Shown: positions 30,356 to 48,723 of the stretch, piece by piece | How the letters are laid out: the number at the start of each line of letters is the position of its first letter | Position numbering within the stretch: position 1 is the stretch's first letter | DNA from: a phage | Reading direction: 5' to 3' (one strand) | Assembly: GCA_024683775.1 (NCBI GenBank) | Contig: GCA_024683775.1_4106.1 | Length of the DNA stretch: 64,000 bases | Position numbers and translations under genes: made by a program | The notes under the pieces: model-generated | Told to the model about the DNA's origin: nothing | Database searches by the model: none | Seen by the model: the letters and a program-made list of their open reading frames with translations, nothing else

Positions 30356-30381
30356 ATTTTAAAAGTATTTGTAGAAAGTAC

Positions 30382-30409
30382 TTGCACCGTACTGATAAAA
30401 GCGTATAAT
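30382..30409 (+). promoter_or_regulatory. early promoter (conserved type)
   Basis: AGTACTTGCAC -35-like (TTGCAC 30382-87), 16-bp spacer, TATAAT 30404-09, then GTTTTACATC start region. Confidence 0.65.
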
Positions 30410-30423
30410 GTTTTACATCGAGA

Positions 30424-30440
30424 GCGGGAACACTTCCCGC
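30424..30440 (+). promoter_or_regulatory. conserved GC-rich 5'UTR stem-loop
   Basis: GCGGGA-ACACT-TCCCGC immediately downstream of promoter start region and upstream of SD/ATG 30465. Confidence 0.6.
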
Positions 30441-30464
30441 TACACATTACGAGAGATTAAAACG

Positions 30465-30827
30465 ATGGCGACTCAAATCAATAAAATTATTGCTAACCTG
30501 GTTAACTTCCGCGACGAGATGAAAGATCTTCCGGCGGCAACGGTTAAAACTCACATTGACGCATACCGCGAACTGATTAAAATGCTGCCGCTTAAGCGTG
30601 AACAATACGCCGCTACCGTGATGCTTGATGCGATGATCCATAAGATGATCTCAAATGATTTGACGATGGTTTATCAGTATATGGGTGAAAATTTCGCGGT
30701 GTGCAGTAAGCCAGTACCAGGGATGGCAACAACTGAGGAATTGCACGGCTTAAACTTAAAACAAGATGCATGGGATAATATGCCTCGTTTCCTGGTATGG
30801 GCTGACAGTGGCAAAATTTACAAATAA
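30465..30827 (+). CDS. hypothetical early protein (120 aa)
   Basis: Start at ATG 30465; the tracked N-terminal extension MFYIESG... is translation of the promoter -10/hairpin. Confidence 0.7.
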   Translation: MATQINKIIANLVNFRDEMKDLPAATVKTHIDAYRELIKMLPLKREQYAATVMLDAMIHKMISNDLTMVYQYMGENFAVCSKPVPGMATTEELHGLNLKQDAWDNMPRFLVWADSGKIYK

Positions 30828-30841
30828 GTTTAATAAAGTAC

Positions 30842-30869
30842 TTGCAAACTATGTTTAATGGCGTATAAT
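30842..30869 (+). promoter_or_regulatory. early promoter (conserved type)
   Basis: TTGCAA 30842-47, 16-bp spacer, TATAAT 30864-69, GTTTTACATC, then stem-loop GGGGAATAGTTCCCC. Confidence 0.65.
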
Positions 30870-30919
30870 GTTTTACATCAGGTGGGGAATAGTTCCCCAC
30901 TATATAAGAGGATTAAAAA

Positions 30920-31159
30920 ATGGCTAAATCAAAAAAGTTCTTAGGTCACAAAAACAAAACTCATTGGAATGTAAGCCTTTGGATTAATAACGATGAGGGA
31001 TTGTATCGGTTGGCCCTGGATTTTATTAACGACAACACTAATCGCAATGATGCGGCCCGTCATATGATGTTATTTTTAGAACAGACTGGACAAGATAAAA
31101 CACCGGACGGATTCAAATATAGCACTACTGCGATCCGTGCGGCAATGGTTGGAATGTAA
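30920..31159 (+). CDS. hypothetical early protein (79 aa); paralog of 32960
   Basis: SD AGAGGA; shares GHKNKTHWNVSLWINN and PDGFKYSTTAIRAAMVGM with 32960 ORF. Confidence 0.7.
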   Translation: MAKSKKFLGHKNKTHWNVSLWINNDEGLYRLALDFINDNTNRNDAARHMMLFLEQTGQDKTPDGFKYSTTAIRAAMVGM

Positions 31160-31244
31160 TAGAATTTATTTAAAGTACTATCATTTTTTGCGATAGTACT
31201 TTATAATAGTGTTTTATTCATACACCAACGATAAGGGCAACAGC

Positions 31245-31511
31245 ATGAATATTAAGTATTTTGCGACGCGTGAACAAGCTCGGATCGCCGCACGCCAGGA
31301 CGGGGCAACGTTTAAAGATATGGGCGTACAATCGGAACGTGGTAAACGTTGGGCCATTGTAAAGCGTAGTACCGCCAGATCATTACAGTACTGGTTAGCG
31401 GCCTTAAAAAGTCCCGATAGTGTATCGCGTCGAGTGGTAGAAATAAAGCTCGACCGAAAGGGCAACCGCGTGACCGTGTACCGTACTAAAAAGATTGCAG
31501 TACTTGAATAA
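31245..31511 (+). CDS. hypothetical early protein (88 aa); paralog of 43401
   Basis: Start at ATG 31245 with AAGGG SD; shares FATREQARI..GETFKDMG..RKGNRVTVY with 43401 ORF. Confidence 0.7.
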   Translation: MNIKYFATREQARIAARQDGATFKDMGVQSERGKRWAIVKRSTARSLQYWLAALKSPDSVSRRVVEIKLDRKGNRVTVYRTKKIAVLE

Positions 31512-31598
31512 AAAGTACTTGCTAACTATGTTTAAAGGCGTATAATGTTTTACATCGAGAGCGGGAACTCTTCCCGCCTATAACCTGGAGTAATAAAA

Positions 31599-31829
31599 AT
31601 GACTAATATGTATATGACTGAAGTTAAAACCGTAAAAGATACTACCACGAATAAAACTACTTACTTACAGCGGATCTGTGGTGTATGGCAACGTATCAGC
31701 AAATCAAAGTACTTTAAATTAACATCATATGCAAATCGTTCGGATTCATTCAGTACTGAAATAAAAGGTAATAAAGTACACCAATACGGCACTTATTATT
31801 ATTACAGCCTGGACGCGATTGCAGTATAA
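31599..31829 (+). CDS. hypothetical early protein (76 aa)
   Basis: Promoter + stem-loop GCGGGAACTCTTCCCGC upstream; SD GGAG. Confidence 0.65.
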   Translation: MTNMYMTEVKTVKDTTTNKTTYLQRICGVWQRISKSKYFKLTSYANRSDSFSTEIKGNKVHQYGTYYYYSLDAIAV

Positions 31830-32257
31830 GCAGTTTACAAATCTTTACAATTGCCGGTATTGACTTATTTTGTCAGTACTGGCATAATGTATTCATTGGC
31901 AGATAAGCCGTAGCCCATAGGGTGCGGGAGTGTATCTATAGAAAAATTAGTTTAGTATAGTTACAATTGTGCACCCGGTGGGTTAGCTGTTGTCATGGGG
32001 TATATTATGCCAGTACTTGATAATGCTGTCAATACTTTTTTTTTACTATTCAGTACTGAAAACTATTTTTAAAAAGTACTTGTAAACTATGTTTAAAGGC
32101 GTATAATGTTTTACATCAGGACGGGGAACGAAATAAGTAACTTCCCGTTAAGTAGCCCAGGAGTAAGGCACACGAAAAACTCCCCTGATAAAATAGTTTG
32201 ACAATAGAAAGTAAAAGCGTATAATACTTACATCAACTACTGAATGAGGGTTACAAA

Positions 32258-32869
32258 ATGAAAACTATCACTACTACTACTTTTGTTATGGCTTTTTCTG
32301 AACTGAACGCAGAACAAAAAACGGCGGCTATCGAACTGGTTCGGGATCGTGAGCGTTCATGTGAGGATAATTTCTTTGCTGAGGGCGTTATCGAGTACTA
32401 TAAAGAAACAGTACTACCAGAATACGGCATAGATGAAGCTGAATTGCAATACAGTGGTTTTTGGTCGCAAGGTGACGGTGCATCAATCAGTACTGACCAC
32501 GTTGACGCAGTGAAGTTTTTACGCAAGGTAAGAGCATTAACTAAGTATCGCTCAATCCGTCACTTGCTGAATGAAGATGATTTGGCGATGAGTGTAGAAC
32601 GTTCACACTCTCGCTACGCACACGAAAACACGGTAAGCGGGTACATTGAATCGGCTTACACTGATTTAACCGCAAAACAAGAAACGTTAGTTAATGAGCT
32701 TGAGGAACTACTCACTGAAACTATTCGTGAATTGTCCCGCAAGTTGTACCGTGATTTAGAGAATGCATATGAGGATCAATTCACTACTGAAAACATTACG
32801 GCACTGATTGAGGGTAACGAATATCAATTCAATGTTATTGATGGCGTAGTGGAATCAATCGAATATTAA
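32258..32869 (+). CDS. hypothetical acidic early protein (203 aa)
   Basis: ORF with two upstream promoter-like boxes (32075-32110 and 32195-32230); SD GAGGG. Confidence 0.7.
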   Translation: MKTITTTTFVMAFSELNAEQKTAAIELVRDRERSCEDNFFAEGVIEYYKETVLPEYGIDEAELQYSGFWSQGDGASISTDHVDAVKFLRKVRALTKYRSIRHLLNEDDLAMSVERSHSRYAHENTVSGYIESAYTDLTAKQETLVNELEELLTETIRELSRKLYRDLENAYEDQFTTENITALIEGNEYQFNVIDGVVESIEY

Positions 32870-32881
32870 TTTAAAAAGTAC

Positions 32882-32909
32882 TTGCAAACTAAGTTTAAAA
32901 GCGTATAAT
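32882..32909 (+). promoter_or_regulatory. early promoter (conserved type)
   Basis: TTGCAA 32882-87, spacer, TATAAT 32904-09; stem-loop GCGGGGAATGGTTCCCCGC 32923-41. Confidence 0.65.
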
Positions 32910-32959
32910 ACTTTATATCGAGGCGGGGAATGGTTCCCCGCTCAAACGAGGATTTAAAA

Positions 32960-33199
32960 ATGGCTAGTACTAAAACTTACAACGGACACAAAAACAAAAC
33001 TCATTGGAATGTAAGCCTTTGGATTAATAACGGTGAGTCATTGTATCGGCTTGCACAAAGTTGCATCGCACAAAGTAGAACTAAAGATATTGCTGCGGAA
33101 TGTATGTACCGCAGATTAAAAGCCAACGGTACTACTACAACGCCGGACGGCTTTAAGTATAGCACTACTGCGATCCGTGCTGCAATGGTTGGAATGTAA
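32960..33199 (+). CDS. hypothetical early protein (79 aa); paralog of 30920
   Basis: Start at ATG 32960; conserved C-terminus identical to 30920 ORF. Confidence 0.7.
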   Translation: MASTKTYNGHKNKTHWNVSLWINNGESLYRLAQSCIAQSRTKDIAAECMYRRLKANGTTTTPDGFKYSTTAIRAAMVGM

Positions 33200-33256
33200 T
33201 ATTCAGTACTGAGATAATGGCGGGTAATAGTTCCCGCCTTTACTGAGGGTTATCTA

Positions 33257-33517
33257 ATGAGTAAAGTAATTAGCTATACAGCACTAAGCAAGACATTATC
33301 TATTAGCCAGTGCACCGATGGTTATTGGCTATTTGATGAAACGCGTGGCATGAATTTAGCCATGCGTGCAAAAACTGCTGAGGCGGCGTATCTTGAAGCA
33401 TTGGAATACTACCAGGAACGTTTAAAGGAAGTAGAAGAAGATTATAAAAGCCTCAAAGCGAAAGTAGATCATTTCGTCGGTCAATTCATCGAGGAAGACG
33501 ACGACAAACAATATTGA
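33257..33517 (+). CDS. hypothetical early protein (86 aa)
   Basis: ORF preceded by stem-loop GGCGGGTAATAGTTCCCGCC 33219-38 and SD GAGGG. Confidence 0.65.
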   Translation: MSKVISYTALSKTLSISQCTDGYWLFDETRGMNLAMRAKTAEAAYLEALEYYQERLKEVEEDYKSLKAKVDHFVGQFIEEDDDKQY

Positions 33518-33603
33518 AAAAGTACTTGCAATTAGTTTTCAGTACTGTATAATGGTTTACATCAAAGGGAGAAATGGTTCTCCCTGGTAATGAGGAAAAT
33601 AAA

Positions 33604-33825
33604 ATGGCTAATATCACTACTCTTTCCCAACTGGAAGCACTGGTTAAATCTATGCGGGAACATGCCGACAAAATCGGCGTACAAGATCCAGCCGTTTGCT
33701 TCTGCGACGAATTGAATGATGATACCCTGGTAATAGCAGAAGTCCAGGACGTTTCTAACTATTCCTCGCGTTACACTGGCGGCGTAGCAAATAAAGGCGA
33801 CTTCTGTTTATACCTTACAAAATAA
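33604..33825 (+). CDS. hypothetical early protein (73 aa)
   Basis: Start at ATG 33604 after promoter and stem-loop GGGAGAAATGGTTCTCCC; SD GAGGAAAA. Confidence 0.65.
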   Translation: MANITTLSQLEALVKSMREHADKIGVQDPAVCFCDELNDDTLVIAEVQDVSNYSSRYTGGVANKGDFCLYLTK

Positions 33826-33828
33826 CAA

Positions 33829-33860
33829 CGCGGGGAGATAATAACTCCCCGTTACTTTTT
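33829..33860 (+). terminator. rho-independent terminator
   Basis: CGGGGAG-ATAATAA-CTCCCCG stem-loop followed by TTACTTTTT. Confidence 0.6.
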
Positions 33861-34068
33861 CAGTACTGAATCATTTAATAGACGGATCTCGGCACCCGGT
33901 GGGTTAGTGACTGTTTCGTCTTGATGTAGTAATTATGCCAGTACTGGATGCACTTGTCAACAACTATTTTTCAAATACTTTTTATTAAAATACTTGCAAT
34001 TAGTTTTTAAACGCGTATAATGTTTTGCATAGGGGGAGCGGTTCCCCTGGTAACTAAGGAATAATAAA

Positions 34069-34305
34069 ATGCTTGAACAAATCAAATCAACGTCTGCGAA
34101 TGTAACGGGAACGGTAGTACACTTTACTAGTGATGAATCGCGGGGTGTACCCTATTGTGCTGTACATGTAAACACTGAGGGTAACTACTGGTTTACGGTT
34201 TACGGATCATATTCATTTGGACGACCAGGGCATCAAAAAATTCTGGATAAAGTACAGCCAACGGGTAAAAATATCACTGCTGAAATGTTTTATAAAAAAT
34301 CATAA
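34069..34305 (+). CDS. hypothetical early protein (78 aa)
   Basis: Promoter + stem-loop GGGGGAGCGGTTCCCC upstream; SD AAGGAA. Confidence 0.65.
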   Translation: MLEQIKSTSANVTGTVVHFTSDESRGVPYCAVHVNTEGNYWFTVYGSYSFGRPGHQKILDKVQPTGKNITAEMFYKKS

Positions 34306-34389
34306 AGTACTTGATAATAGTTTTTAGTACTGTATAATATTTTACATCGCAAGGGGGAGCGGTTCCCCCTGGTAACTAAGGATAATCAA

Positions 34390-34689
34390 ATGAAAATTAC
34401 AATCATCGCCCTGGCTTTATCTGTTTCCTCTTTCGCTGTTAATGCGTCATTAGATGTAAGTAGTGAAAAATTCATTCAGTGCACTGTTGCAATGACCGAT
34501 GAAAGTACTGGCGAGATTGTATTAAAGGATCTGGAGATTCAGCCGGAAGCATTTAAAAACGGCCCGTTCCATGAAGAAGACGAAAACGGTAGCACGACAA
34601 TTTATTATGATGCCAGTACTAAACGCGGTTCGGTCACTGTAATGGATACCGAGAAAGTAACTCATACCGGCGTTATTAATTGCCGTTGA
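34390..34689 (+). CDS. small secreted/periplasmic protein (99 aa) with N-terminal signal peptide
   Basis: N-term MKITIIALALSVSSFAVNASL: basic residue, hydrophobic core, A-x-A-like cleavage site (VNA-S); promoter + stem-loop upstream. Confidence 0.65.
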   Translation: MKITIIALALSVSSFAVNASLDVSSEKFIQCTVAMTDESTGEIVLKDLEIQPEAFKNGPFHEEDENGSTTIYYDASTKRGSVTVMDTEKVTHTGVINCR

Positions 34690-34710
34690 TAGATACTACG
34701 GGGTAACATC

Positions 34711-34941
34711 ATGACTAAGCGAATTGTTTTACTTAACGAAAGCAGTACTACACAACTACTTAACGCCGTGCATTATGATATTGAAACGAGCGTTAATCTT
34801 ATCAGTACTGTCGTACTGTTGGACACTGGAAAGGTCGCCAATGATAAAGCGATTGCAGGTATACTAACGGATCTTGAGCCTGGTAGCAGTGCACCAATAA
34901 CGTTAAATGGTAAAGTGTTTAATATTTTACTCACTGATTAA
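34711..34941 (+). CDS. hypothetical early protein (76 aa)
   Basis: ORF with SD; followed by terminator. Confidence 0.6.
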   Translation: MTKRIVLLNESSTTQLLNAVHYDIETSVNLISTVVLLDTGKVANDKAIAGILTDLEPGSSAPITLNGKVFNILLTD

Positions 34942-34947
34942 GTACAT

Positions 34948-34976
34948 AGCCCACCTGGTGGGCTTTTTTGTTTTTG
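34948..34976 (+). terminator. rho-independent terminator
   Basis: AGCCCACC-TGGTGGGCT palindrome followed by TTTTTTGTTTTTG. Confidence 0.75.
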
Positions 34977-35174
34977 TAGTATCGTAGTACTGAGATACTT
35001 TGAAAATAGTTTTAAGAAAGTAGTTGACATTACCGCAGAAAAGCGTAGAATGTATTACATCAAGACGGGGAGCACTAAGTAGACCGCCAGTAAGTCGAAC
35101 GAAAAACTGGACACGTCGAGAAAACTTTGATACACTAATAAACGTAAACTAAACTTTAATTGAGGATTTATAAA

Positions 35175-35657
35175 ATGGCTAATGTAAAATCATTCATCAA
35201 AGCACTGGTAGCAAATGAAACTAACGTCGCGGCTGAGATCCTGGCTGAACTGGATAACGATACCATGAAAGCGGTACGCAATAATTTTAACATCGCGTAC
35301 AGTACTGCGAAAGAACTACAAGCAAATAAAGCGGCAGAAATTGAAGCGGCAAAGGCGGCCCGTGAAGCAGAACTACAAGCAACAATCGAAAGTATTCAGG
35401 CGGCAGTAGTTGGATTGGATCTGGAAGTAGTTACAGAGATGGCACAAAAAGCCCTGGCGGTTAAGTATGGGGAAGACAAGCCAGAAGTAAAAGCCAAAAA
35501 ATGGATTCAGGAACGCGTAGCGGTAGTACTGGACAACGGGGAAGAATATCTGATTCCGGTGCGTGGTAACTGCATTGCGGTAGTACTGGATGCGATTAAC
35601 TCCAGTGGTATGACTCGCGAGGAATGGATCAAAGCTCATCGCAAAGTTGAAGCATAA
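35175..35657 (+). CDS. hypothetical early protein (160 aa), alanine/glutamate-rich, predicted helical
   Basis: Start at ATG 35175 with SD GAGGA; followed by terminator. Confidence 0.7.
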   Translation: MANVKSFIKALVANETNVAAEILAELDNDTMKAVRNNFNIAYSTAKELQANKAAEIEAAKAAREAELQATIESIQAAVVGLDLEVVTEMAQKALAVKYGEDKPEVKAKKWIQERVAVVLDNGEEYLIPVRGNCIAVVLDAINSSGMTREEWIKAHRKVEA

Positions 35658-35678
35658 CAATTAAAGTACTGAATCACT

Positions 35679-35710
35679 AGCCCACTGTATAAGTGGGCTT
35701 TTTTGTGTTT
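35679..35710 (+). terminator. rho-independent terminator
   Basis: AGCCCAC-TGTATAA-GTGGGCT stem-loop followed by TTTTTTGTGTTT. Confidence 0.75.
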
Positions 35711-35941
35711 ATCGTTTACCATGCCACCAGCACCGCCTAGAAACGATTCTAACGCATTAAACTGATTATCTGATGCATTGCCCTAGCTGGTGGCGTTAAG
35801 GCTGTAAGAACGCGATTGAGAGCGTTTAAAGTATTTTGCAAAAAGTAATAAAAAGTACTTGCACGATTAAGAGATTAGCGTATAATGTTTTACATCGAGA
35901 GGGGGAAACGGTTCTCCTTCCAAATCAAAGGAATTAAAACA

Positions 35942-36169
35942 ATGGCTATCGTAATCACTCGCGTAACTGGTACTACTGGCAATTCTTCTACTGTTGCTGT
36001 AATTACTAATAAGAAAGGTGCGGAATTGCATTTTGCAATGGATAAATGGGCCGTTAATGAGTTCGGTCAGTGGGCAAGTGTAGCATACATTGAAACCTAT
36101 CAAGTGCCGTCGATTAGTTTAACTGATTTGGGCGTTGAGCGTATCCTTTGCCTGGATGAATTAAATTAA
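35942..36169 (+). CDS. hypothetical early protein (75 aa)
   Basis: Start at ATG 35942 after promoter + stem-loop; tracked extension MFYIERGK is promoter-derived. Confidence 0.65.
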   Translation: MAIVITRVTGTTGNSSTVAVITNKKGAELHFAMDKWAVNEFGQWASVAYIETYQVPSISLTDLGVERILCLDELN

Positions 36170-36255
36170 AAAAGTACTTGCAAAGTAAATCAGATAAAGT
36201 ATAATACATTACATCAAGGGGAGAAATGGTTCTCCCTGATAATGAGGAAACTAAT

Positions 36256-36399
36256 ATGAAAACTTGTCAATGTGGTAAAAAATCTATTACTGGTTTAAAG
36301 CGGGGCGTTGCACTTTGCCAGTACCATTATAATTTACAAGTATGGGGTAAAGAATGGGCCGACCAGGTGGAAGCAGCAAAGAAAGCAAAAAGTAAGTAA
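36256..36399 (+). CDS. small cysteine-containing protein (47 aa)
   Basis: ORF below track cutoff found by reading; preceded by promoter, stem-loop GGGAGAAATGGTTCTCCC and SD GAGGAAA. Confidence 0.5.
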   Translation: MKTCQCGKKSITGLKRGVALCQYHYNLQVWGKEWADQVEAAKKAKSK

Positions 36400-36417
36400 A
36401 ATATTATCACAGTACTA

Positions 36418-36446
36418 TTGACATAGTTTGATAGTACTGGCATAAT
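36418..36446 (+). promoter_or_regulatory. sigma70 consensus-like promoter
   Basis: TTGACA 36418-23, 17-bp spacer, CATAAT 36441-46. Confidence 0.65.
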
Positions 36447-36489
36447 AGATTTTATCAAGACGACACATATTAATTTAAGGAATACTAAA

Positions 36490-36813
36490 ATGGCTAAAAC
36501 TATCATTAACACCGTTTCCCTGGCTGCAATCCGTGCAATCAATGTTGACGGTAAACGTTGGACTGATTCATATGGCAATACTTATCATTCTTGTCATGTA
36601 AGCGTTGAACTGGATAACGGTTTGAATGATCTGGCGGTTGAATCATTTACTTATGGCTATGAAGATGCATATCAACAAACGGCGTTAGATCTCTTAAAGG
36701 AATCAGTAGACGGGCTTAATACTGATGACACCTCCCTTACTCGTTTGTGCAATGATCTTAATATCCCGTTGCATTGTACTGTACAGAATGTTAAACGCAA
36801 AAAAGATCTTTAA
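36490..36813 (+). CDS. hypothetical early protein (107 aa); paralog of 42978
   Basis: Shares RWTDS.GNTYHSC.VS...FTYGY and C-terminal VKRKKD with 42978 ORF; SD AAGGAA. Confidence 0.7.
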   Translation: MAKTIINTVSLAAIRAINVDGKRWTDSYGNTYHSCHVSVELDNGLNDLAVESFTYGYEDAYQQTALDLLKESVDGLNTDDTSLTRLCNDLNIPLHCTVQNVKRKKDL

Positions 36814-36893
36814 TTAGCTTTACTTTATGCAGATACTTTGATATAGTGTCTGCATAGGGGAAAGAAATTAAATTAACTTAAGAGGAACGTATA

Positions 36894-37163
36894 ATGAAAA
36901 ATATCAGTACTTTAATCGACGCAGGTACACATGTTCGGCGGTCTATGGTTGCAACCAGTACTACAAAACAAGTACCAAGCGGTTATCTTGTATTTGTGCA
37001 CGATGGTAAACTCCTGGAACGTTCAATCAATTTTGATGTTAAAAACAATTGCCGTTTTATTATCTTTAAGCGTGAGCAATATAAAATTGATTTACCAGCA
37101 AAGCCCATAAGCGGGGCGTACAACGTGCAATCATTGTTTGAACGTCAACCATACACCTATTAA
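36894..37163 (+). CDS. hypothetical early protein (89 aa)
   Basis: ORF with SD AGAGGAA. Confidence 0.6.
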   Translation: MKNISTLIDAGTHVRRSMVATSTTKQVPSGYLVFVHDGKLLERSINFDVKNNCRFIIFKREQYKIDLPAKPISGAYNVQSLFERQPYTY

Positions 37164-42056: not shown

Positions 42057-42343
42057 TGCTATTATATACGCATAGAAACAAATTAGCCCACCGGGTGCAT
42101 AAATGTATCTATTGTTTGCTGGTGGCTAGTACTATCAAGTACTGAAAACTATTTTTAAAAAAGTACTTGCAAAGTATCACGATAAGCGTATAATGTTTTA
42201 CATCAGGACGGGGAACGAAATAAGTAACCCCGTTAAGTAGTCCAGGAGTAAGACATACGAAAAACTCCCCTGATAAAATAGTTTGACAATAGAAAGTAAA
42301 CGAGTATAATACTTACATCAACCACTGATAAGGAAACATTAAA

Positions 42344-42619
42344 ATGCGGACTTTACTTACAGCTAACGAAATCGAGCAAGTACTGACTACTAATCTGGAA
42401 CAATGGAAACGTGAAGCAGATATCCAGGCGGTTCAATGCCTTAACGATAAGTTAACGCCAGATGACTTAAGCACGATTGTTGATCCACAATTTTATGAAG
42501 ATATTCACGACACGTCTTTAAGCGTCGAGGATGTACTTGATAAGCACTACATTGATACTGATTTACATGTTTACGGTCGTAAAAACTTTATCACTATTCA
42601 CGACATTTACAATACTTAA
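42344..42619 (+). CDS. hypothetical early protein (91 aa)
   Basis: Two promoter-like boxes upstream (42165-42200, 42280-42315); SD AAGGAAA. Confidence 0.65.
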   Translation: MRTLLTANEIEQVLTTNLEQWKREADIQAVQCLNDKLTPDDLSTIVDPQFYEDIHDTSLSVEDVLDKHYIDTDLHVYGRKNFITIHDIYNT

Positions 42620-42707
42620 GTATTGACAAAGTATCTTAGTACTGTATAATAGTTTACATCAAGTGAGGGGAAACGGTTCCCCTCCTAACAAAGAGAGAGA
42701 AATTAAA

Positions 42708-42890
42708 ATGGCTAAGTGCACTATCTGTAAGAAAGAAATCGTATTAGTTCCAAGTGCCCGTGAACGTGCCGCTCGGTTCGGTGGCAAAGCGTCAGACTAT
42801 ACAAAAATGTTTACTGCCCATGCAGCTTGTCAAGTAGCAAAACGTTCACAAGAAAGCGTAGAATTAATGCGTAAACTTTCCAAAAAATAA
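42708..42890 (+). CDS. hypothetical early protein (60 aa), cysteine pair CTIC + CQ
   Basis: Start at ATG 42708; promoter + stem-loop GAGGGGAAACGGTTCCCCTC upstream. Confidence 0.6.
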   Translation: MAKCTICKKEIVLVPSARERAARFGGKASDYTKMFTAHAACQVAKRSQESVELMRKLSKK

Positions 42891-42977
42891 GTATTGACAA
42901 AGTATCTTAGTACTGTATAATAGTTTACATCAAGCGAGGGGAATGGTTCCCCTCCTAACAAAGAGAGAGAAATAAAA

Positions 42978-43301
42978 ATGGCTATGATCCTTACCCAGAA
43001 AGTAGAACTGAAAATTGTAACCTCCTTTGACATTAAAGTTAATCGGTGGACTGATAGCCACGGCAATACTTACCACTCCTGCTACGTGTCCGCATTGATT
43101 GGTGATCGCTGGGAAGACCTGGGACACGAAACCTTTACATACGGTTACGGCACACAAGGTGAGTACACGGGTTTAGAAATCATTAAGGAAACTGTAATAG
43201 GTTTCAACCCGAAAGAGAAAGTACTACACAGAATTGAGAAAGAGATCAACAAAGAAATTACAGTTCGCTACTACGATGTAAAACGTAAGAAAGACATGTA
43301 A
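42978..43301 (+). CDS. hypothetical early protein (107 aa); paralog of 36490
   Basis: Promoter + stem-loop + SD; similarity to 36490 ORF. Confidence 0.7.
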   Translation: MAMILTQKVELKIVTSFDIKVNRWTDSHGNTYHSCYVSALIGDRWEDLGHETFTYGYGTQGEYTGLEIIKETVIGFNPKEKVLHRIEKEINKEITVRYYDVKRKKDM

Positions 43302-43400
43302 TAGAATCCATTTAAAGTACTATTTGACATTGCCCAGATAGTACTTTATAATAGACTCTAACTTGTAGTACTAATTAACTTAACTAATAGGATGTACACC

Positions 43401-43796
43401 ATGATTACTAAATTCTTCGCTACCCGTGAACAAGCTCGCATCGTTGCCCGTGAGGAAGGTGAAACATTTAAAGACATGGGTAAAGATTCTCCTACTGGTA
43501 AACGCTGGGCGGTACAGTTCAAAGAGATCTCTGATATTGTGAATTCACCTGAGCCTGTACTTACAGCAGCAGAACTAAAGCAAGCTCAAGAACTGGCTGA
43601 AGTACTGAACGCTCAAGATGACTTCTTGAAAGGTTCTGATATTGAAGTTACAGTTAACGCAAATGCATGGACTCACGCGGATCACCTGGCAAACCTTAAG
43701 CGTCCAAGTGAACTGATTCGCAACCAGAAAGAGATCCGACACGACCGTAAGGGTAATCGTGTAACAGTATACAGTAAACGCCGCCAGGTTATCTAA
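43401..43796 (+). CDS. hypothetical early protein (131 aa); paralog of 31245
   Basis: Start chosen at ATG 43401 (AGGA SD 9 nt upstream); similarity to 31245 ORF. Confidence 0.65.
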   Translation: MITKFFATREQARIVAREEGETFKDMGKDSPTGKRWAVQFKEISDIVNSPEPVLTAAELKQAQELAEVLNAQDDFLKGSDIEVTVNANAWTHADHLANLKRPSELIRNQKEIRHDRKGNRVTVYSKRRQVI

Positions 43797-43818
43797 TAAC
43801 TTGCAGTACTAACAACAC

Positions 43819-43843
43819 GGCGGGATCAGTTCCCGCCTTTTTT
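43819..43843 (+). terminator. rho-independent terminator
   Basis: GGCGGGA-TCAGT-TCCCGCC followed by TTTTTTA. Confidence 0.7.
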
Positions 43844-43857
43844 ATAGGACAAACAAA

Positions 43858-44112
43858 ATGATTAAGGTTCAACTATATAAAGATAACATCTTACGGGTAC
43901 ACTATAAAGCACCTCAGAGAATCATCACAAAGGCCGTACAGCTTGCTAATGAGTTTATTAATGGTAACCTATTACCTAGGAAGTTAAGCAACGGGAAACT
44001 GCGTGTAATCGACGTGGACACTAACAACAGGATAGTAATCGAGAACACAGGAAAGATAAACCTTTATGAGCATCAACAATACAATAAGAAAATAAAACTA
44101 ATATCACGTTGA
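43858..44112 (+). CDS. hypothetical protein (84 aa)
   Basis: ORF with SD AGGA. Confidence 0.55.
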   Translation: MIKVQLYKDNILRVHYKAPQRIITKAVQLANEFINGNLLPRKLSNGKLRVIDVDTNNRIVIENTGKINLYEHQQYNKKIKLISR

Positions 44113-44165
44113 CAGTACTCAATTGTTTTAGTACTATGTACACATACCAACACGGGAGAAACAAA

Positions 44166-44384
44166 ATGAAATTATCTAAAATCGAAAAGAAAACTATTGA
44201 TGAAGCAGTTAAGCACGGTTATACCTTTCGTAATGATTCACATTTTACCAATTTTCAACAAGGGTATCGTACTATTAAAAAACTAATTGACAAAGGTTTA
44301 TTAGTTGAAGTCAATAACGGTAACGGTATCGAGTATCAACCAACACAAGACGCATTTTATTTTAAGAAATATAATATTATCTAA
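44166..44384 (+). CDS. hypothetical protein (72 aa)
   Basis: Start at ATG 44166 with SD GGGAGAAA. Confidence 0.55.
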   Translation: MKLSKIEKKTIDEAVKHGYTFRNDSHFTNFQQGYRTIKKLIDKGLLVEVNNGNGIEYQPTQDAFYFKKYNII

Positions 44385-44442
44385 TTGACAGTACTCAATT
44401 GTTTTAGTATTATGTACACATACCAACACGGGGGGAAACAAA

Positions 44443-44685
44443 ATGATTACTTTAGAAAAACGTATCAAAGAAACTACATCGCTGGTGGAACTGTTAACAG
44501 TACTCAAATGTAAAACAACACCATTCAGCACGCCGGACTTTATTAATATGGTTGATGTTAATGGTCGCTATCGTATCACGGTCGAACAAGGAGCGGCGAA
44601 AGTATTCAGTACTAAAAACACTAAGGAAGTGATCCACGCCGTTAATGTTAAAAAAGTAGTTGCCATTGATAGTAAAGTACTGTAA
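44443..44685 (+). CDS. hypothetical protein (80 aa)
   Basis: SD GGGGGGAAA; upstream region duplicates that of 44166 (TTGACAGTACTCAATTGTTTTAGTA.TATGTACACATACCAACACGGG). Confidence 0.55.
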   Translation: MITLEKRIKETTSLVELLTVLKCKTTPFSTPDFINMVDVNGRYRITVEQGAAKVFSTKNTKEVIHAVNVKKVVAIDSKVL

Positions 44686-44716
44686 TATAGTTTCATTAAC
44701 TCAAGGAGAACATGCA

Positions 44717-45301
44717 ATGCGTAAATATACTAAATTCATCCGTACACTGTCAGAAATGGAAACCAACAAAGAGATCCTTTCAGCTTGTCGGTTAGCTGGC
44801 CTGGAGATCATCGGTGCTGGTTCTTCCCGTATAGTATTCGCTTTAAATGATCGGTTAGTGATTAAGGTCGCGAATTGTGATGCGGGTGTCGAACAAAATG
44901 AAACTGAATGTAAGGTATGGAATTTTTTAGACTATGACCGCCCTCAGTTGAAACAGTACTTTGCAAAGGTGCATATGCATTTATGCGATCCTGATAATAT
45001 GTTTATCGTTATGGATCGGTTGAGTACTGCAAGCAAAGGCAGTGTGAAGCACGTAAACGCGTGCAATGAATTAAAGTACAATATTAAACGTAATGCAATC
45101 GAACGCCAGCACCGCTTTGCTGATGCACTACAACACGTTGATGATACATTATCAACACTAACGATAAGAGATATCAGAAAACAGAATATCGGCCAGGATC
45201 GTAATGGACTTATTAAAGTACTTGATTACGGTTTAACCAGCAATATCTGGAATCAGTACTATAAAAAGCGTGATGTGGCAGCAAGTAAGGTAACACGATA
45301 A
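44717..45301 (+). CDS. putative protein kinase-like protein (194 aa)
   Basis: Motif order matches a kinase fold: GAGSSRIV (Gly-rich loop), VIKVA (VAIK-like Lys), IRDIRKQN (catalytic loop D..N), LDYG (DFG-like); SD AAGGAGAA. Confidence 0.5.
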   Translation: MRKYTKFIRTLSEMETNKEILSACRLAGLEIIGAGSSRIVFALNDRLVIKVANCDAGVEQNETECKVWNFLDYDRPQLKQYFAKVHMHLCDPDNMFIVMDRLSTASKGSVKHVNACNELKYNIKRNAIERQHRFADALQHVDDTLSTLTIRDIRKQNIGQDRNGLIKVLDYGLTSNIWNQYYKKRDVAASKVTR

Positions 45302-45312
45302 AAAAGATTAAA

Positions 45313-45340
45313 AAAGGGATTGACTCCGGTCAGTCCCTTT
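45313..45340 (+). terminator. conserved hairpin of the recurrent intergenic module (copy 3)
   Basis: AAGGGATTGACTCCGGTCAGTCCCTTT then GCTATTATATAT. Confidence 0.5.
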
Positions 45341-45525
45341 GCTATTATATATCCATTGAGAGATAACTCACTGACCCATAGGGTGCGGAAGTGTATCTAT
45401 TATATAAGTATTCAGTACTGAAAACTATTTGATAAAAAGTACTTGCAAACTATCTCAATGAGCGTATAATGTTTTATATCGAGAGGGGGAAATGGTTCTC
45501 CCTGGTACTAAAAGGAATCAAGACG

Positions 45526-45747
45526 ATGACTACTATGACCTGCGTTCACGCTTCAAATCTTCTGAATGATGCAGCATTTAAAGCAGGTGAAGAATATCAA
45601 TGCTATCGGGATGAAAATAAAAAAGTTTTCGTCGTTGATGCTAACGGTTTCCATATTGAATTGCAATCCGGCTTCACTGGTTTAAATGGTAAATCAGTAT
45701 GGGGCGTTAATGATGATAATGGTCTTTATCACTTTATCCGTAATTAA
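45526..45747 (+). CDS. hypothetical early protein (73 aa)
   Basis: Start at ATG 45526 after promoter + stem-loop GGGGGAAATGGTTCTCCC + SD AAAGGAA. Confidence 0.6.
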   Translation: MTTMTCVHASNLLNDAAFKAGEEYQCYRDENKKVFVVDANGFHIELQSGFTGLNGKSVWGVNDDNGLYHFIRN

Positions 45748-45751
45748 GTAT

Positions 45752-45779
45752 TTGACAAAGTATATCAGTACTGTATAAT
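45752..45779 (+). promoter_or_regulatory. sigma70 consensus promoter
   Basis: TTGACA 45752-57, 16-bp spacer, TATAAT 45774-79; stem-loop GGGGAGAATAGTTCTCCCC 45792-45810. Confidence 0.7.
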
Positions 45780-45831
45780 AGTTTACATCAAGGGGAGAAT
45801 AGTTCTCCCCGATACTAAAAGGAATAAAATC

Positions 45832-46239
45832 ATGACTACTACCAATCAAGCTCGGAACATCACCAACGATAAAAATCATGCTGCAATGGTCGCTGGATAC
45901 ATTGAAGCTATGCAATTCAGTACTGTATACAATGAGAACGGCGATTACCTGGAAGATTATGAATTATCAGAGCAAGCCCATCAAGCGGCAGTGATTGCAT
46001 GTTCACGTTTCCTTGCTGTACATGGTGAAGATATGGAAACAGTACAAAAACACCATAATCCTGATTATACTTATAGTCATGCAGGTCATGATCTCTTTCT
46101 TACTCGCGAAGGTCACGGCACTGGTTTTTGGGATCGTGGTTTAGGTCACTATGGCGATGTATTCACGAAGTACTGCGAAGAAATCAACGTTTGCGATCCC
46201 TATGTAGGCGATGATAACTTAATCTATATGGGCGAATAA
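45832..46239 (+). CDS. hypothetical early protein (135 aa), His/Gly-rich C-terminal half
   Basis: ORF with promoter, stem-loop, SD AAAGGAA. Confidence 0.7.
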   Translation: MTTTNQARNITNDKNHAAMVAGYIEAMQFSTVYNENGDYLEDYELSEQAHQAAVIACSRFLAVHGEDMETVQKHHNPDYTYSHAGHDLFLTREGHGTGFWDRGLGHYGDVFTKYCEEINVCDPYVGDDNLIYMGE

Positions 46240-46328
46240 AAGTATTTGACAAAGTATATCAGTACTGTATAATAGTTTACATCAAGGGGAGAATAGTTCT
46301 CCCCACACCAATAAAAGGAAACAAAATT

Positions 46329-46601
46329 ATGTCCAGCTACTCCGCTACTATGATCATTAAAGATATGAACGGTAATCCTACTTCTGCTGGTGGATCATTT
46401 GGAAATATTAACTTAGATGGGCGGTTATCCATGCAATCAGCCATCGATGCAGCGAAAGAAGTTTTTAAGAATGAATGTACTGTTAGTAAGCTGGATTATA
46501 TGGGTTTCGCTATCGAGAAAACTACTCGTTTTGTGAACTACAAAAATCCACTGATGATTGATACTAACCTGAAAGCTAACGAAGTGGGGTACTTATTATG
46601 A
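46329..46601 (+). CDS. hypothetical early protein (90 aa)
   Basis: Upstream region (46243-46300) is a near-copy of the 45752 promoter/stem-loop; SD AAAGGAA. Confidence 0.7.
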   Translation: MSSYSATMIIKDMNGNPTSAGGSFGNINLDGRLSMQSAIDAAKEVFKNECTVSKLDYMGFAIEKTTRFVNYKNPLMIDTNLKANEVGYLL

Positions 46602-46789
46602 CAGTAGAAGAAGTAAAAAAAGTACTGGCAGTACTACGATATCATAATCATTGCAAGGTGAAGAATGATCCTGATTATCTTGATTCATCCCTGGAGGAAG
46701 ACACCTTGAACGCTATAAGCCATATGCAGACATTAGCAAAGCGTATGACTGAAAAGAACATGCCGGACTATATCGGAAATAAAATTTAA
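46598..46789 (+). CDS. hypothetical early protein (63 aa)
   Basis: ATGA overlap with previous gene. Confidence 0.55.
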   Translation: MTVEEVKKVLAVLRYHNHCKVKNDPDYLDSSLEEDTLNAISHMQTLAKRMTEKNMPDYIGNKI

Positions 46790-46876
46790 AAAGTACTTGC
46801 ATTGTAGTTAGATTAACGTATAATGTTTTATATCGAGAGGGGGAAATGGTTTCCCCTCAAGTCCAGGAGATACACC

Positions 46877-47140
46877 ATGAACACTATCGAAATCACTATC
46901 AATGCACACGTATACGACAACGTAGTACTGCAAACTACTATGACCGCCAATGATACCAGTACTTTGCGGAATACTGTTATTAGTGCCGTATGTGCCGCTA
47001 TCGGTGATGTCGCCCTGGAAAATGCAAAACACGTAAACGATGGTTTCACTATGTGCAAACGTGATAACGCAAAACATATCATCGTGGAAGGTTACGGCGG
47101 TGTAGAATTTAATGTTTATATGAAAAAAGTACTTGCATAA
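46877..47140 (+). CDS. hypothetical early protein (87 aa)
   Basis: Start at ATG 46877 after promoter + stem-loop GGGGGAAATGGTTTCCCC + SD AGGAGA. Confidence 0.65.
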   Translation: MNTIEITINAHVYDNVVLQTTMTANDTSTLRNTVISAVCAAIGDVALENAKHVNDGFTMCKRDNAKHIIVEGYGGVEFNVYMKKVLA

Positions 47141-47207
47141 TAACTAAAACAAAGTATAATGTTTTGCATAGGGGGAGATATCCTCCCCCACTAAAAGGAG
47201 TAATAAA

Positions 47208-47432
47208 ATGGCTAACTTTGATGAACTGATGCGGGAAGTAGCTAACCTGGCAGAAGAGAAGAAATCATTCGATTCTATCTATAACACCGCTCACCGTGAT
47301 TCAGTACTGGCATGTAACCAGGATCAAAAAGATGAACTAATCGCCACCTATCATGAAGCATGGAAGTACTACCGACAATGGGAGAAAGAAGAAAGTGAGT
47401 CTACCATTGACGGCCTCAATAATCTAATCTAA
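47208..47432 (+). CDS. hypothetical early protein (74 aa)
   Basis: Promoter + stem-loop GGGGGAGATATCCTCCCCC + SD AAGGAG. Confidence 0.65.
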   Translation: MANFDELMREVANLAEEKKSFDSIYNTAHRDSVLACNQDQKDELIATYHEAWKYYRQWEKEESESTIDGLNNLI

Positions 47433-47508
47433 AAGTTTTATTTCAGTACTATTGACATAGCTTGATAGTACTGATGTAATAACTTTACTAACTACAAGGG
47501 GAAACATA

Positions 47509-47766
47509 ATGGATCAGTTCACACAATATCGGGTAAATCCTCAAGCTATGGCCTACGTAGAAGACCATAAAACGTTACCAGTACTGCAACCAGTTAAAGG
47601 CCATATCTATCGTGCAATGTCGTGGTGTACGGCCCAGGATGGCTATAAAACCGTAGCCGTGGGTATGTATTGCGGTGATGGTGAATGGTTTGATCCAAAT
47701 AATCCGGTATCCATTGACAGTACTGAAAAAATGAAATGGGCCGACTACATCGAAGATATTTCATAA
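47509..47766 (+). CDS. hypothetical early protein (85 aa)
   Basis: TTGACA 47452-57 / TGTAAT promoter; SD AAGGGGAAA. Confidence 0.65.
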   Translation: MDQFTQYRVNPQAMAYVEDHKTLPVLQPVKGHIYRAMSWCTAQDGYKTVAVGMYCGDGEWFDPNNPVSIDSTEKMKWADYIEDIS

Positions 47767-47856
47767 AAACTATTTGACAGTACTAACCAGTAATGTATAA
47801 TGTTTTACATAGAGCGGGGGAATAGTTCTCCCGCCAATAGTTTGGAGTAAAACATT

Positions 47857-48057
47857 ATGTCTATCGCTATCGCCCTGGTTGAAGTACTGAAAGAAGCTAA
47901 AGCCAACCAGATCGACGTAAAGATCCAGGAACTACAAAACGGCTTAATCGGCTGTACTTGTACCGCTGGTGGAGCGGCAGACTATCGAGAACACGAATCA
48001 CTCGAATCACTGGTTCGGTATCTTACCATGATCGTTGATGATTGGAGAATCATCTAA
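47857..48057 (+). CDS. hypothetical early protein (66 aa)
   Basis: Promoter + stem-loop GCGGGGGAATAGTTCTCCCGCC + SD GGAG. Confidence 0.65.
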   Translation: MSIAIALVEVLKEAKANQIDVKIQELQNGLIGCTCTAGGAADYREHESLESLVRYLTMIVDDWRII

Positions 48058-48071
48058 CAAAAAAGAATAAA

Positions 48072-48098
48072 AAAAGGGATTGACTCCGGTCAGTCCTT
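48072..48098 (+). terminator. conserved hairpin of the recurrent intergenic module (copy 4)
   Basis: AAGGGATTGACTCCGGTCAGTCCTTTT then GCTATTATATA. Confidence 0.5.
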
Positions 48099-48302
48099 TT
48101 GCTATTATATACGCATAGACAAAAACTAGCCCACAGGGTGCATAGGTGTATCCAAAATATATAGTTAATAACGGTGAGTAACTATCTGCTGGTGGAACTA
48201 AAACTATTAATAAAAAAGTATTGACAAAGTATATCAGTACTGCAATAATGTATCTCGTAGGGCGGCAATGGTGCGACGGCCCACAAAGTTAGGAGATTCA
48301 AA

Positions 48303-48638
48303 ATGACTACTTCAATCGCTATCGTTAAAGCTTTCATCCGTACTAATGTTTCCTCTGTATTCATCGACGGCCTCGACCGTAACGTAGAATACTCAATCAT
48401 TATCGCACAAACGGCAAACGGTTCTCGGTACATCCTGAATGATAGTGAAGCAAATCACTACTACTTCACTAAAGCCACTGGCTTTAAACGCATCGATGCT
48501 GATGTAGTATACGCTAAGATGAATAAGCTGGTAGACAAGATTAACGCGAAAGGTACTATCGATTTACAGTACTGGACCGAAACCGATCCAGAGTATGGAT
48601 CTCACCGCTACCTGAATCCAGGTATTAAAATGAAATAG
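48303..48638 (+). CDS. hypothetical early protein (111 aa)
   Basis: TTGACA..(spacer)..GCAATAAT promoter-like box at 48223-48250; SD AGGAGA. Confidence 0.65.
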   Translation: MTTSIAIVKAFIRTNVSSVFIDGLDRNVEYSIIIAQTANGSRYILNDSEANHYYFTKATGFKRIDADVVYAKMNKLVDKINAKGTIDLQYWTETDPEYGSHRYLNPGIKMK

Positions 48639-48723
48639 TACTTGCATAGTACTTAGATTCATGTATAATGTTTTACATAGAGAGGGGGAAATGGTTCTCC
48701 CTCCTAAATTAAGGAGTTTTATC

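Follow-up and report, generated by a model that had tools for sequence, protein, structure and literature searches.

A 64,000-nucleotide stretch of phage DNA (GenBank assembly GCA_024683775.1, contig GCA_024683775.1_4106.1; hereafter the window) carries about 25 copies of a short cassette in which a sigma-70 promoter is followed by a GC-rich hairpin that is predicted to be transcribed into the 5' untranslated region (5'UTR) of the small gene downstream. We are highly confident of this identification, and it is very probable, if a shade less certain, that selection acts on the hairpin as an RNA structure. The array lies in a direct terminal repeat (DTR) of the phage, and the closest described entity is the promoter-early stem-loop (PeSL) of T4-type phages. 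As a whole, the explanation that we favor has about an even chance of being right: a self-contained early-expression cassette of PeSL type, present about 25 times in the DTR, with the hairpin serving as an element of stability and insulation. Taken by itself, that inferred role of the hairpin is put forward more tentatively. What is new is the variant position of the stem-loop and a new host group, the RaK2-like jumbo phages, for PeSL-like early cassettes. An earlier note on the same DNA, made from the sequence alone, had described more than 25 copies of a promoter plus stem-loop family as an "early module" between 30.4 and 48.7 kb. The family holds up, with 29 promoter copies, 25 family hairpins, and two long-loop variants; absent from that note were the coincidence of the module with a DTR of ~21 kb, the PeSL counterpart with its role as a recombination linker, and at least two other promoter classes.

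The early module at 30.4 to 48.7 kb is the ~21-kb DTR of the phage. Over a 6-kb sample taken from the flagged region, identity to the Asteriusvirus jumbo coliphages Ecwhy_1, WPEC3, phAPEC6, and G17 is 94-97%, and the window belongs to a jumbo coliphage of the Asteriusvirus type (121Q/PBECO4-like). Phage fEgEco12 has a 20,993-bp DTR whose termini are backed by PhageTerm and restriction digests (PMC13070987), and the record of vB_Ec-M-J annotates a repeat at 1..21,525. Position 1 of both genomes corresponds to position 28,675 of the window, and the DTR ends of both (20,993 and 21,525, respectively) correspond to 49,555. The window is also collinear across the fEgEco12 junction between the right-hand unique sequence and the DTR. 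Because the ends map in this way and the junction is collinear, the assembly must hold one collapsed copy of the repeat. Within the window, the family is restricted to 28,675-49,555, and a generic hairpin scan detects its hairpins nowhere else.

The promoters form a single family and, judged by their sequence, are of the near-consensus host sigma-70 (RpoD) type. Matches to GTATAATGTTTTACATC with at most three mismatches occur 31 times in the window against 0.9 expected, 29 of them on the + strand from 29,061 to 48,663, and AAAGTACTTGCAA with at most two mismatches is found 39 times against 3.7 expected. All 29 copies of the family pattern, AAAGTACTTGCAA-N16-(G)TATAATGTTTTACATC, lie in the DTR on the + strand; they combine a -35 element (TTGCAA or TTGACA) with a 16-bp spacer and TATAAT, and many agree with the sigma-70 consensus at 10 to 12 of 12 positions. 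A complete cassette runs from an A-rich upstream tract through the promoter, an AT-rich discriminator and start region (GTTTTAC-AUC...), the hairpin, an A-rich spacer, and an AAGGA or GAGGA ribosome site to the ATG of a small gene of unknown function. This order of early sigma-70-type promoter, predicted transcribed hairpin, Shine-Dalgarno (SD) sequence, and start codon, which the earlier note had proposed, is supported.

Folding of the sequence downstream of the promoters places a GC hairpin of 7-12 bp (-10.6 to -16 kcal/mol) behind 24 promoter copies, and a 25th hairpin follows a variant promoter at 41,044-41,108. These 25 folded hairpins match, to within a few bases, every stem-loop position that had been listed from the letters. 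Their stems are of the G-run/C-run type, GGGGAGAA-loop-TTCTCCCC and variants, with loops of 3 to 6 nucleotides (nt) and occasionally up to 14. When the transcription start is predicted as the A of a C-A step 8 nt (or 6 nt) after TATAAT, the hairpin occupies the interval from +2/+7 to +21/+30 in every family copy. The message would then begin with an unpaired leader of 1-6 nt (median, 5) within a 5'UTR of 40-50 nt, so that the claim of a hairpin at the very 5' end stands insofar as the stem is near the predicted end and fails insofar as it is not at that end. The distance from the G of GTATAAT to the start of the loop is 27-29 nt in 21 of 24 copies. The stem ends 17-24 nt before the ATG, typically about 19 nt, with the AAGGA-type ribosome site between the two, 7-12 nt downstream of the hairpin; the distance from promoter to hairpin is more constant than that from hairpin to ATG.

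This geometry bears on the annotation of the genes. The ATG within TATAATG opens open reading frames (ORFs) whose products begin MFYIE..., such as 30,408..30,827, and these N-terminal extensions are annotation artefacts, as the earlier note had maintained for ORFs drawn through the element. Coding sequences that start at the -10 ATG are present in public records as fEgEco12 g01 (1689-2108) and G17_00053 (16091-16510).

Evidence for selection on RNA structure comes from comparison among copies and among genera. A covariance model (R1) made from ten window copies retrieves cassettes in the DTRs of the Klebsiella phages Muenster and fENko-Kae01, in coliphage A7_1, and in Serratia phage BF. In an alignment of 47 cassettes from the window and these four genomes, 96.4% of cells pair, and changes on both sides (compensatory changes) are seen at all eight stem pairs; a covariance analysis of the copies, which the earlier note had named as a check, thus favors the element as a structure. 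Double-change cells number 72 against 14.5 in shuffles, with none of 500 shuffles reaching 72, and sliding the 3' partners by 1-3 columns lowers pairing to 54-78%. Direct inspection of Muenster reveals the stems GGGAATGA..TCATTCCC, GGGGATAC..GTATCCCC, and GGAGATTCCA..TGGAATCTCC with offset and promoter unchanged. In the other genera, too, quite different stems keep the same offset from the promoter, and what the genera have in common are the GGG...CCC stem ends and an AUC(R)A(R) leader. Among non-Watson-Crick cells read on the sense strand, G·U outnumbers A·C by 21 to 10 (binomial p = 0.035), and an RNA of the + strand is therefore favored over a palindrome in duplex DNA.

Divergence between close relatives follows the same pattern. 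In 73 orthologous cassette pairs between the window and fEgEco12, vB_Ec-M-J, G17, and 121Q, differences per site are lowest in the -10 element (0.002) and the stem (0.015), followed by the upstream A-tract (0.027), the discriminator and leader (0.036), and the -35 element (0.046). Coding sequence (0.065), the loop (0.069), the hairpin-to-ATG spacer (0.069), and the promoter spacer (0.076) diverge most. Stems are thus 4-5 times less changed than loops (p = 3e-6), which indicates that the pairing of the hairpin, and not its loop, is under purifying selection.

PeSL cassettes have been described in the T4-type phages RB49/phi1, T4/PST, and KVP40/nt-1 (Arbiol et al. 2010, PMC2839356; Comeau et al. 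2014, PMC4122927), where they are very strong promoters and recombination linkers and are seen as terminator/promoter composites (PMC2839356, PMC4122927). Like PeSLs, the cassettes in the window are intergenic units of ~70-100 bp with an AT-rich tract, a near-consensus sigma-70 promoter, a G-run/loop/C-run stem-loop, an SD sequence, and an ATG, and they are repeated many times among small orphan early genes of a plastic region in which breakpoints of indels and replacements fall at cassettes. There is also a resemblance between the phi1 leader ATCGAAACGA...GGAGAATCAAAATG and the short leaders found in Eneladusvirus relatives. The position of the stem-loop is different. In the phi1 sequence, which we inspected, stem-loops lie between -35 and -10 or over the -10, and in PST and nt-1 they lie just upstream of the promoter (PMC2839356, PMC4122927). 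Because it is upstream of or within the promoter, the PeSL stem-loop is outside its own transcript, and it has been read as a terminator, whereas here it is always transcribed, by prediction, into the 5'UTR and has a T-poor tail. The carrier also differs, being a RaK2-like jumbo phage in which the array fills the terminal repeat. No match to R1 at E<=0.01 was found in 50 kb of phi1 that include its PeSL-rich region, and no T4-type phage was matched by blastn of one element; likeness to phi1 is limited to short motifs (AAAAAGT..TTGACA, ATCGAAACGA).

In the RaK2-like phage CBB, and also in GAP32, RpoD-like early promoters with an UP-like element have been reported (PMC5259590). CBB belongs to the same phage group, and its sigma-70 promoters are likewise clustered among short hypothetical genes, some of them in the terminal repeat, with the genes read as early or host-takeover genes; only 18 promoters are listed, however, and the report mentions no hairpin or stem-loop (PMC5259590). 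The word "promoter" is absent from the RaK2 paper, and neither promoters nor hairpins are treated in the papers on Sharanji and fEgEco12. We found no description of these hairpins in the open-access literature on RaK2-like phages, Asteriusvirus, and jumbo phages.

Several better-known elements share single features with the cassette. Stabilizers near the 5' end of highly expressed mRNAs, such as the 5'UTR hairpin of E. coli ompA and the T7 gene 10 leader GGGAGACCACAACGGUUUCCC, act independently of stem sequence. Like these, the window elements place a GC-rich hairpin close to the 5' end and, after it, an A/U-rich spacer and a strong SD sequence; pairing is conserved (compensatory changes at 8/8 pairs), loops are unconstrained, and in the makeup of its purine and pyrimidine arms the stem of T7 gene 10 is very similar. 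Those hairpins start at the 5' end or within about 2-4 nt of it; here, the predicted leader is 1-6 nt (median, 5). The terminal redundancy of SPO1 and the first-step-transfer region of T5 are host-takeover or pre-early modules in terminal repeats, and they resemble the DTR of the window in holding many small genes of unknown function with strong host-type promoters in a long direct terminal repeat. By analogy with T5, the repeat may be the first DNA to enter the cell. The phages are unrelated, and we know of no stereotyped 5'UTR hairpin in the SPO1 and T5 modules. RNA hairpins close to an early promoter that act on the transcript or the polymerase are familiar from lambda nut/boxB and HK022 put. 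Unlike boxB, with its conserved purine-rich pentaloop and adjacent boxA, the loops here vary, and there is neither a boxA-like nor any other conserved flanking box. The put element has two larger stem-loops. In the window, every gene has its own promoter.

We propose that host RNA polymerase would start at the predicted A once the repeat DNA is accessible, making these genes the first to be transcribed, and that the stretch from about +2/+7 to +21/+30 of the nascent RNA would form the hairpin. This element would act purely as a structure, whatever its sequence, and would give each early message the same compact, nuclease-resistant module near its 5' end while holding the ribosome site in an unstructured stretch, whichever gene follows. 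In read-through RNA from upstream cassettes, it would be a barrier or a processing boundary and not a terminator. Together, these properties would render each small gene an autonomous, exchangeable unit, and repetition of the ~70-bp cassette would supply homology for gene-sized insertions, deletions, and swaps among related and unrelated coliphages.

A number of observations weigh against this proposal or limit it. The start site is a prediction from spacing rules only. The 47-cassette alignment was fitted to the model structure and is biased toward pairing, and the orthologue comparisons are phylogenetically non-independent. Single-sequence folding z-scores are modest (-0.5 to -4.7) because the shuffles retain the G-runs and C-runs; the real support for the structure therefore comes from covariation and fixed position. 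Since class II promoters (see below), the family promoter at 40,655, and most Eneladusvirus promoters have short unstructured leaders, the hairpin must be modulatory or optional and not essential. Breakpoints bounded by cassettes are partly expected, as the cassettes occupy most of the intergenic space. The predicted median of five unpaired nucleotides before the stem speaks against a simple block of the 5' end; work on ompA by Emory, Bouvet, and Belasco in 1992 reportedly put five unpaired nucleotides at or beyond the limit of full 5'-end protection. A further variant, in which the hairpin is an obstacle to scanning by RNase E, is weakened by the reported ease with which that enzyme bypasses simple stem-loops (PMC9943677).

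The interpretation given in the earlier note is partly supported, in that the hairpin behaves as a selected RNA structure; mRNA stabilization, RNase processing, and binding of a regulator, the roles suggested there, are candidates. The proposal has to be weighed against other roles for the same hairpin. One, suggested for PeSLs, is that the hairpin terminates or attenuates transcription arriving from upstream cassettes and so curbs read-through along the co-directional promoters. In its favor, an RB49 PeSL stem-loop placed between promoter and lacZ cut expression as much as rrnB T1 (PMC2839356), and the phi1 stem-loops likewise lack long U-tracts. Canonical terminators are rare within the repeat, and the G17 record labels several 5'UTR hairpins, 19-20 nt ahead of the start codon, as "putative transcriptional terminators" called by ARNOLD (18966-18985, 23133-23150, 29400-29418). 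Each hairpin here is nonetheless downstream of its own predicted start, so that efficient termination there would cut its own message short at about +30. Tails of 9 nt behind the stems hold a mean of 1.6 T (maximum, 4), against 5-8 at the real terminators of the window, one of which (at 35,679) directly precedes a cassette, and a consensus terminator scan calls none of the 25 family hairpins. An intrinsic terminator is rejected because the tails are T-poor; the phage puts canonical terminators where they are needed and keeps the cassette hairpins free of U-runs. We consider an attenuator unlikely. It is also quite unlikely that a phage or host protein binds the hairpin and thereby controls all immediate-early messages together, whether a translational repressor, a structure-specific shut-off RNase, or an antiterminator. 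Such systems have precedents in T4 RegA and RegB and in lambda N with boxB, one element is common to about 25 early genes at 7-12 nt from the ribosome site, and the stem ends and leader motif are kept across genera. Yet the loops vary freely in length (3 to 6 nt, up to 14) and sequence and evolve like unconstrained sequence, and the stems covary freely so that only a G/C helix is conserved. A related idea, to which we give still less credence as a long shot, is that the hairpin tags the immediate-early messages of RaK2-like jumbo phages and of the Vequintavirinae-like phages that share the cassette for one dedicated factor, which could be a phage structure-specific RNase, an RNA-binding protein, or a host enzyme. 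If this were true, the early class would be switched off, or spared while host mRNA is destroyed, amounting to an undescribed global post-transcriptional switch from early to middle expression.

Other explanations place the function in transcription or in the DNA itself. The element might act during transcription, through promoter escape, through prevention of backtracking or R-loops, or through a promoter-proximal pause for the first ribosome. Escape is often the limiting step at very strong promoters, and the initial transcribed sequence of T5 N25, a strong promoter, is rich in purines; here, a G-rich segment is predicted from about +5, and the steadier distance to the promoter is kept across genera despite differing stems. 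Equally good consensus promoters in the repeat and in Eneladusvirus nevertheless do without a hairpin, and the leader lacks a -10-like pause element, which makes a role of this kind rather improbable. That the palindrome works as DNA (bound as an operator by a dimeric repressor, extruded as a cruciform, or used in site-specific recombination) is suggested by the perfect palindromes of many copies, by the clustering of homology breakpoints at cassettes, and by the RB49 mini-circle whose crossover was mapped inside the loop of a PeSL stem-loop (PMC2839356). Against this, the changes are compensatory and leave no conserved half-site, unlike a protein operator, imperfections favor sense-strand G·U, and breakpoints fall all along the cassette; we regard a DNA function as very unlikely. 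Finally, the copies in one genome are clearly related by descent, so that the hairpin could be a functionless passenger of a duplicated promoter repeat. This seems scarcely credible for stems that are 4-5 times more conserved than loops, spacers, and coding sequence and that retain pairing with other sequences in other genera.

More specific candidates were also rejected. A switch that sequesters the SD sequence is not supported, as pairing between the 3' arm and the ribosome site after removal of the 5' arm is weak and inconsistent (-0.6 to -7 kcal/mol). RNase III needs a stem of about 20 bp, and the 7- to 12-bp stems are too short to be its sites. A DNA-hairpin promoter of the N4 type does not fit a hairpin that is downstream of an excellent sigma-70 promoter and has unconserved loops. 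A LexA box is resembled by CAGTACTGTATAAT in one half-site, but the second half-site is missing. Rfam 15 gave no match anywhere in the window at gathering score, and relaxing the threshold to E<=1 for the repeat yielded nothing credible, only sub-threshold chance matches. A search for tRNA and tmRNA genes found none.

The family extends well beyond the window. With one element as the query, blastn finds matches in all Asteriusvirus genomes, in Alcyoneusvirus (RaK2, K64-1, and Muenster), in the Munch/7t3/fENko-Kae01 group, in Eneladusvirus, and in Vequintavirinae-like coliphages of ~140 kb, at 24-28 places in genomes with both repeat copies and at 10-14 in collapsed ones. Model R1 has 26-28 matches each in fEgEco12, G17, and 121Q, all inside the equivalent of the repeat (2-16 kb of flank was also searched). 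When IMG/VR was scanned for an exact 17-mer, the genuine cassettes, recognized by AAGTACTTGCA before the match and a hairpin after it, came only from jumbo-sized contigs and one contig of 109 kb; the remaining matches have neither feature and are due to chance. In Eneladusvirus (Serratia BF and Yersinia fHe-Yen9-04), the short leader AUCGAAACGGGAGAAUUGAAAUG, with no hairpin, follows most of the homologous promoters.

At least two more promoter classes without the family hairpin are present inside the repeat. Class II promoters (TTGACA-17-TGnCATAAT) are of the extended -10 type, and their leaders are short and unstructured (0 to -1.2 kcal/mol). Class III promoters (TTGACT-N17-TATTAT or CATAAT, extended -10) have the -35 inside a 12-bp hairpin in four of six copies. 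At about +25, they carry a conserved motif, (T)AGCCCAYAGGGTGC(A/G)nAAGTGTATC, without an ORF, and a hairpin cassette usually follows directly downstream. The motif also occurs on the - strand at 29765, 31971, and 33892, and CCCAYAGGGTGC is found nine times, all in the repeat, against 0.19 expected. The same motif follows TTGACT promoters of Muenster, Serratia BF, and Yersinia fHe-Yen9-04 and has no match in Rfam; it is a candidate small RNA or protein-binding site.

Modularity of the cassettes is evident from comparison with four relatives, in which 16 of 41 ends of homology blocks lie within class I cassettes (14% expected; p about 1e-4), and several other ends coincide with class II promoters. 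In fEgEco12, an additional gene, g013, sits between two cassettes. The cassette at 35,880 fuses an upstream promoter to a downstream gene that fEgEco12 drives by a hairpin-less class II promoter, and an indel of one gene, g033, stops within the A-rich tract of the cassette at 41,344. Breakpoints are spread along the whole cassette and do not mark one point. Exchange appears to have crossed wider boundaries as well. Coliphage A7_1, an unrelated member of the Vequintavirinae of ~145 kb, has at least eight early genes plus cassettes in common with the repeat at 72-92% nucleotide identity (11200-20900 compared with window 30900-49100), and a window promoter at 48,221-48,300 with the leader GTAGGGCGGCAATGG resembles cassettes of the A7_1 type. 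These similarities indicate that early-gene cassettes have been exchanged between phage families.

Five family promoters depart from the common plan. In three cassettes, a structured leader of ~75 nt replaces the short hairpin (32115-32190, 42202-42278, and a weaker copy at 35059-35150). It has an AUCAGG...CCUGAU closing helix around two hairpins and three UAAGUA-like repeats, and it is followed by a second, hairpin-less promoter and then the gene. The copies at 32,101 and 42,188 can also be read as the family stem with a 12- to 14-nt loop. In the Vequintavirinae phage A7_1 (11237-11326), the leader is 89-92% identical; it may represent a small RNA or a leader with a regulatory role. The two other promoters, at 40,655 and 29,061, are described in Table 1.

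The palindromic hexamer AGTACT occurs 254 times in the 64 kb against about 20 expected by a rough base-composition estimate. It is densest between 24000 and 49555, with 6.9 copies per kb in the repeat, 3.4 upstream, and 0.9 downstream. Within cassettes, it occupies two fixed places 20 bp apart. The first overlaps the -35 (AAGTACTTG, 19 of 29 copies), and the second adjoins the -10 (CAGTACTG-TATAAT) in 10 of 29 copies here and in nearly all promoters of the Klebsiella, Serratia, and Yersinia relatives. More than 100 additional copies lie outside cassettes, often as TTCAGTACTGAA and in the terminator stems GCCAGTAC..GTACTGGC. AGTACT may be the site of a DNA-binding protein.

The cassettes yield an annotation rule for the ~21-kb terminal repeat, in which true starts are to be sought about 19 nt past the hairpin. 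Such a rule serves a large and growing group of jumbo coliphages that are candidates for therapy, as artefacts (the MFYIE... N-termini and some of the annotated "terminators") are already in GenBank. The PeSL idea, in which mobile promoter/stem-loop cassettes shuffle orphan early genes, is extended from T4-type to RaK2-like jumbo phages, along with exchange of cassette plus gene with an unrelated coliphage subfamily. A stem-loop that invariably forms part of its own message, as predicted here, cannot be a terminator and nothing more, and the 25 paralogues with their built-in compensatory variants therefore offer a clean natural system for testing the role of promoter-proximal hairpins. As compact and very strong promoter/5'UTR modules, the cassettes could also be used for expression in E. 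coli.

Table 1. Coordinates in the window of the cassettes, variant promoter copies, class III promoters, terminators, and terminal repeat
Feature	Coordinates	Strand	Hairpin	ATG	Remarks
DTR equivalent	28675..49555	+			Holds all cassettes; termini of fEgEco12 and vB_Ec-M-J mapped onto window
Cassette 1	30375..30441	+	30423-30441	30465	AAAGTACTTGCAC, N16, GTATAAT
Cassette 2	30835..30901	+	30881-30901	30920	
Cassette 3	31512..31579	+	31558-31579	31599	
Cassette 4	32875..32942	+	32922-32942	32960	
Cassette 5	33519..33585	+	33566-33585	33604	
Cassette 6	33987..34049	+	34030-34049	34069	Short leader
Cassette 7	34304..34370	+	34352-34370	34390	
Cassette 8	35852..35920	+	35899-35920	35942	Two internal G·U; chimeric relative to fEgEco12
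Cassette 9	36171..36236	+	36219-36236	36256	
Cassette 10	37686..37752	+	37733-37752	37772	
Cassette 11	37915..37981	+	37962-37981	38000	
Cassette 12	38508..38574	+	38556-38574	38594	
Cassette 13	38943..39008	+	38990-39008	39029	
Cassette 14	41044..41108	+	41090-41108	41126	Variant promoter TTGCAT-N17-TATAGT
Cassette 15	41316..41382	+	41363-41382	41400	
Cassette 16	41613..41679	+	41658-41679	41699	
Cassette 17	42616..42686	+	42662-42686	42708	
Cassette 18	42887..42956	+	42933-42956	42978	
Cassette 19	45436..45503	+	45484-45503	45526	
Cassette 20	45745..45810	+	45792-45810	45832	
Cassette 21	46239..46304	+	46286-46304	46329	
Cassette 22	46790..46858	+	46837-46858	46877	
Cassette 23	47126..47189	+	47171-47189	47208	
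Cassette 24	47767..47834	+	47814-47834	47857	
Cassette 25	48635..48706	+	48682-48703 (core), 48678-48706 (extended)	48724	
Copy 29,061	29033..29077	+			First family promoter, in non-coding left end; different, longer hairpin; no nearby ORF
Copy 32,101	32073..32149	+	32120-32149		Long-loop variant ACGGGAA..TTCCCGT; second promoter at 32198
Copy 35,045	35017..35061	+			TAGAAT as -10; weak downstream stem only
Copy 40,655	40627..40671	+		40691	Family promoter without hairpin; 22-nt leader
Copy 42,188	42160..42234	+	42207-42234		Long-loop variant; second promoter at 42283
Class III promoter	31860-31945	+			
Class III promoter	38392-38480	+			
Class III promoter	40046-40135	+			
Class III promoter	42037-42120	+			
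Class III promoter	45320-45410	+			
Class III promoter	48080-48165	+			
Real terminator	34,948	+			5-8 T in 9-nt tail
Real terminator	35,679	+			5-8 T in 9-nt tail
Real terminator	43,819	+			5-8 T in 9-nt tail
GCCAGTAC-loop-GTACTGGC terminator type (six loci below)	Upstream of repeat	-			5-8 T in 9-nt tail
RCC1-like paralogue terminator	2819-2844	-			
RCC1-like paralogue terminator	5158-5176	-			
RCC1-like paralogue terminator	9007-9029	-			
RCC1-like paralogue terminator	12663-12688	-			
RCC1-like paralogue terminator	19892-19910	-			
RCC1-like paralogue terminator	22306-22329	-			

The first 1.7 kb of the repeat (28675-30360) is non-coding and repeat-rich, with a 24-bp unit present three times at 29,482-29,553 and a 53-bp unit present 2.8 times at 30,201-30,350. 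It holds many CAGTACTG sites in addition to its single family promoter, and it is reminiscent of the ends of other terminal-repeat phages. Past the other boundary (49555-51500 onward), promoters cease and genes of ~65-70 codons stand head to tail with overlapping stop and start codons, an organization quite different from that of the cassette array. Upstream of the repeat, the genes on the - strand are paralogues that the 121Q annotation calls "putative DNA condensation (RCC1-like)", and each ends in one stereotyped terminator, (AAT)GCCAGTAC-loop-GTACTGGC(ATT), followed by a T-run.

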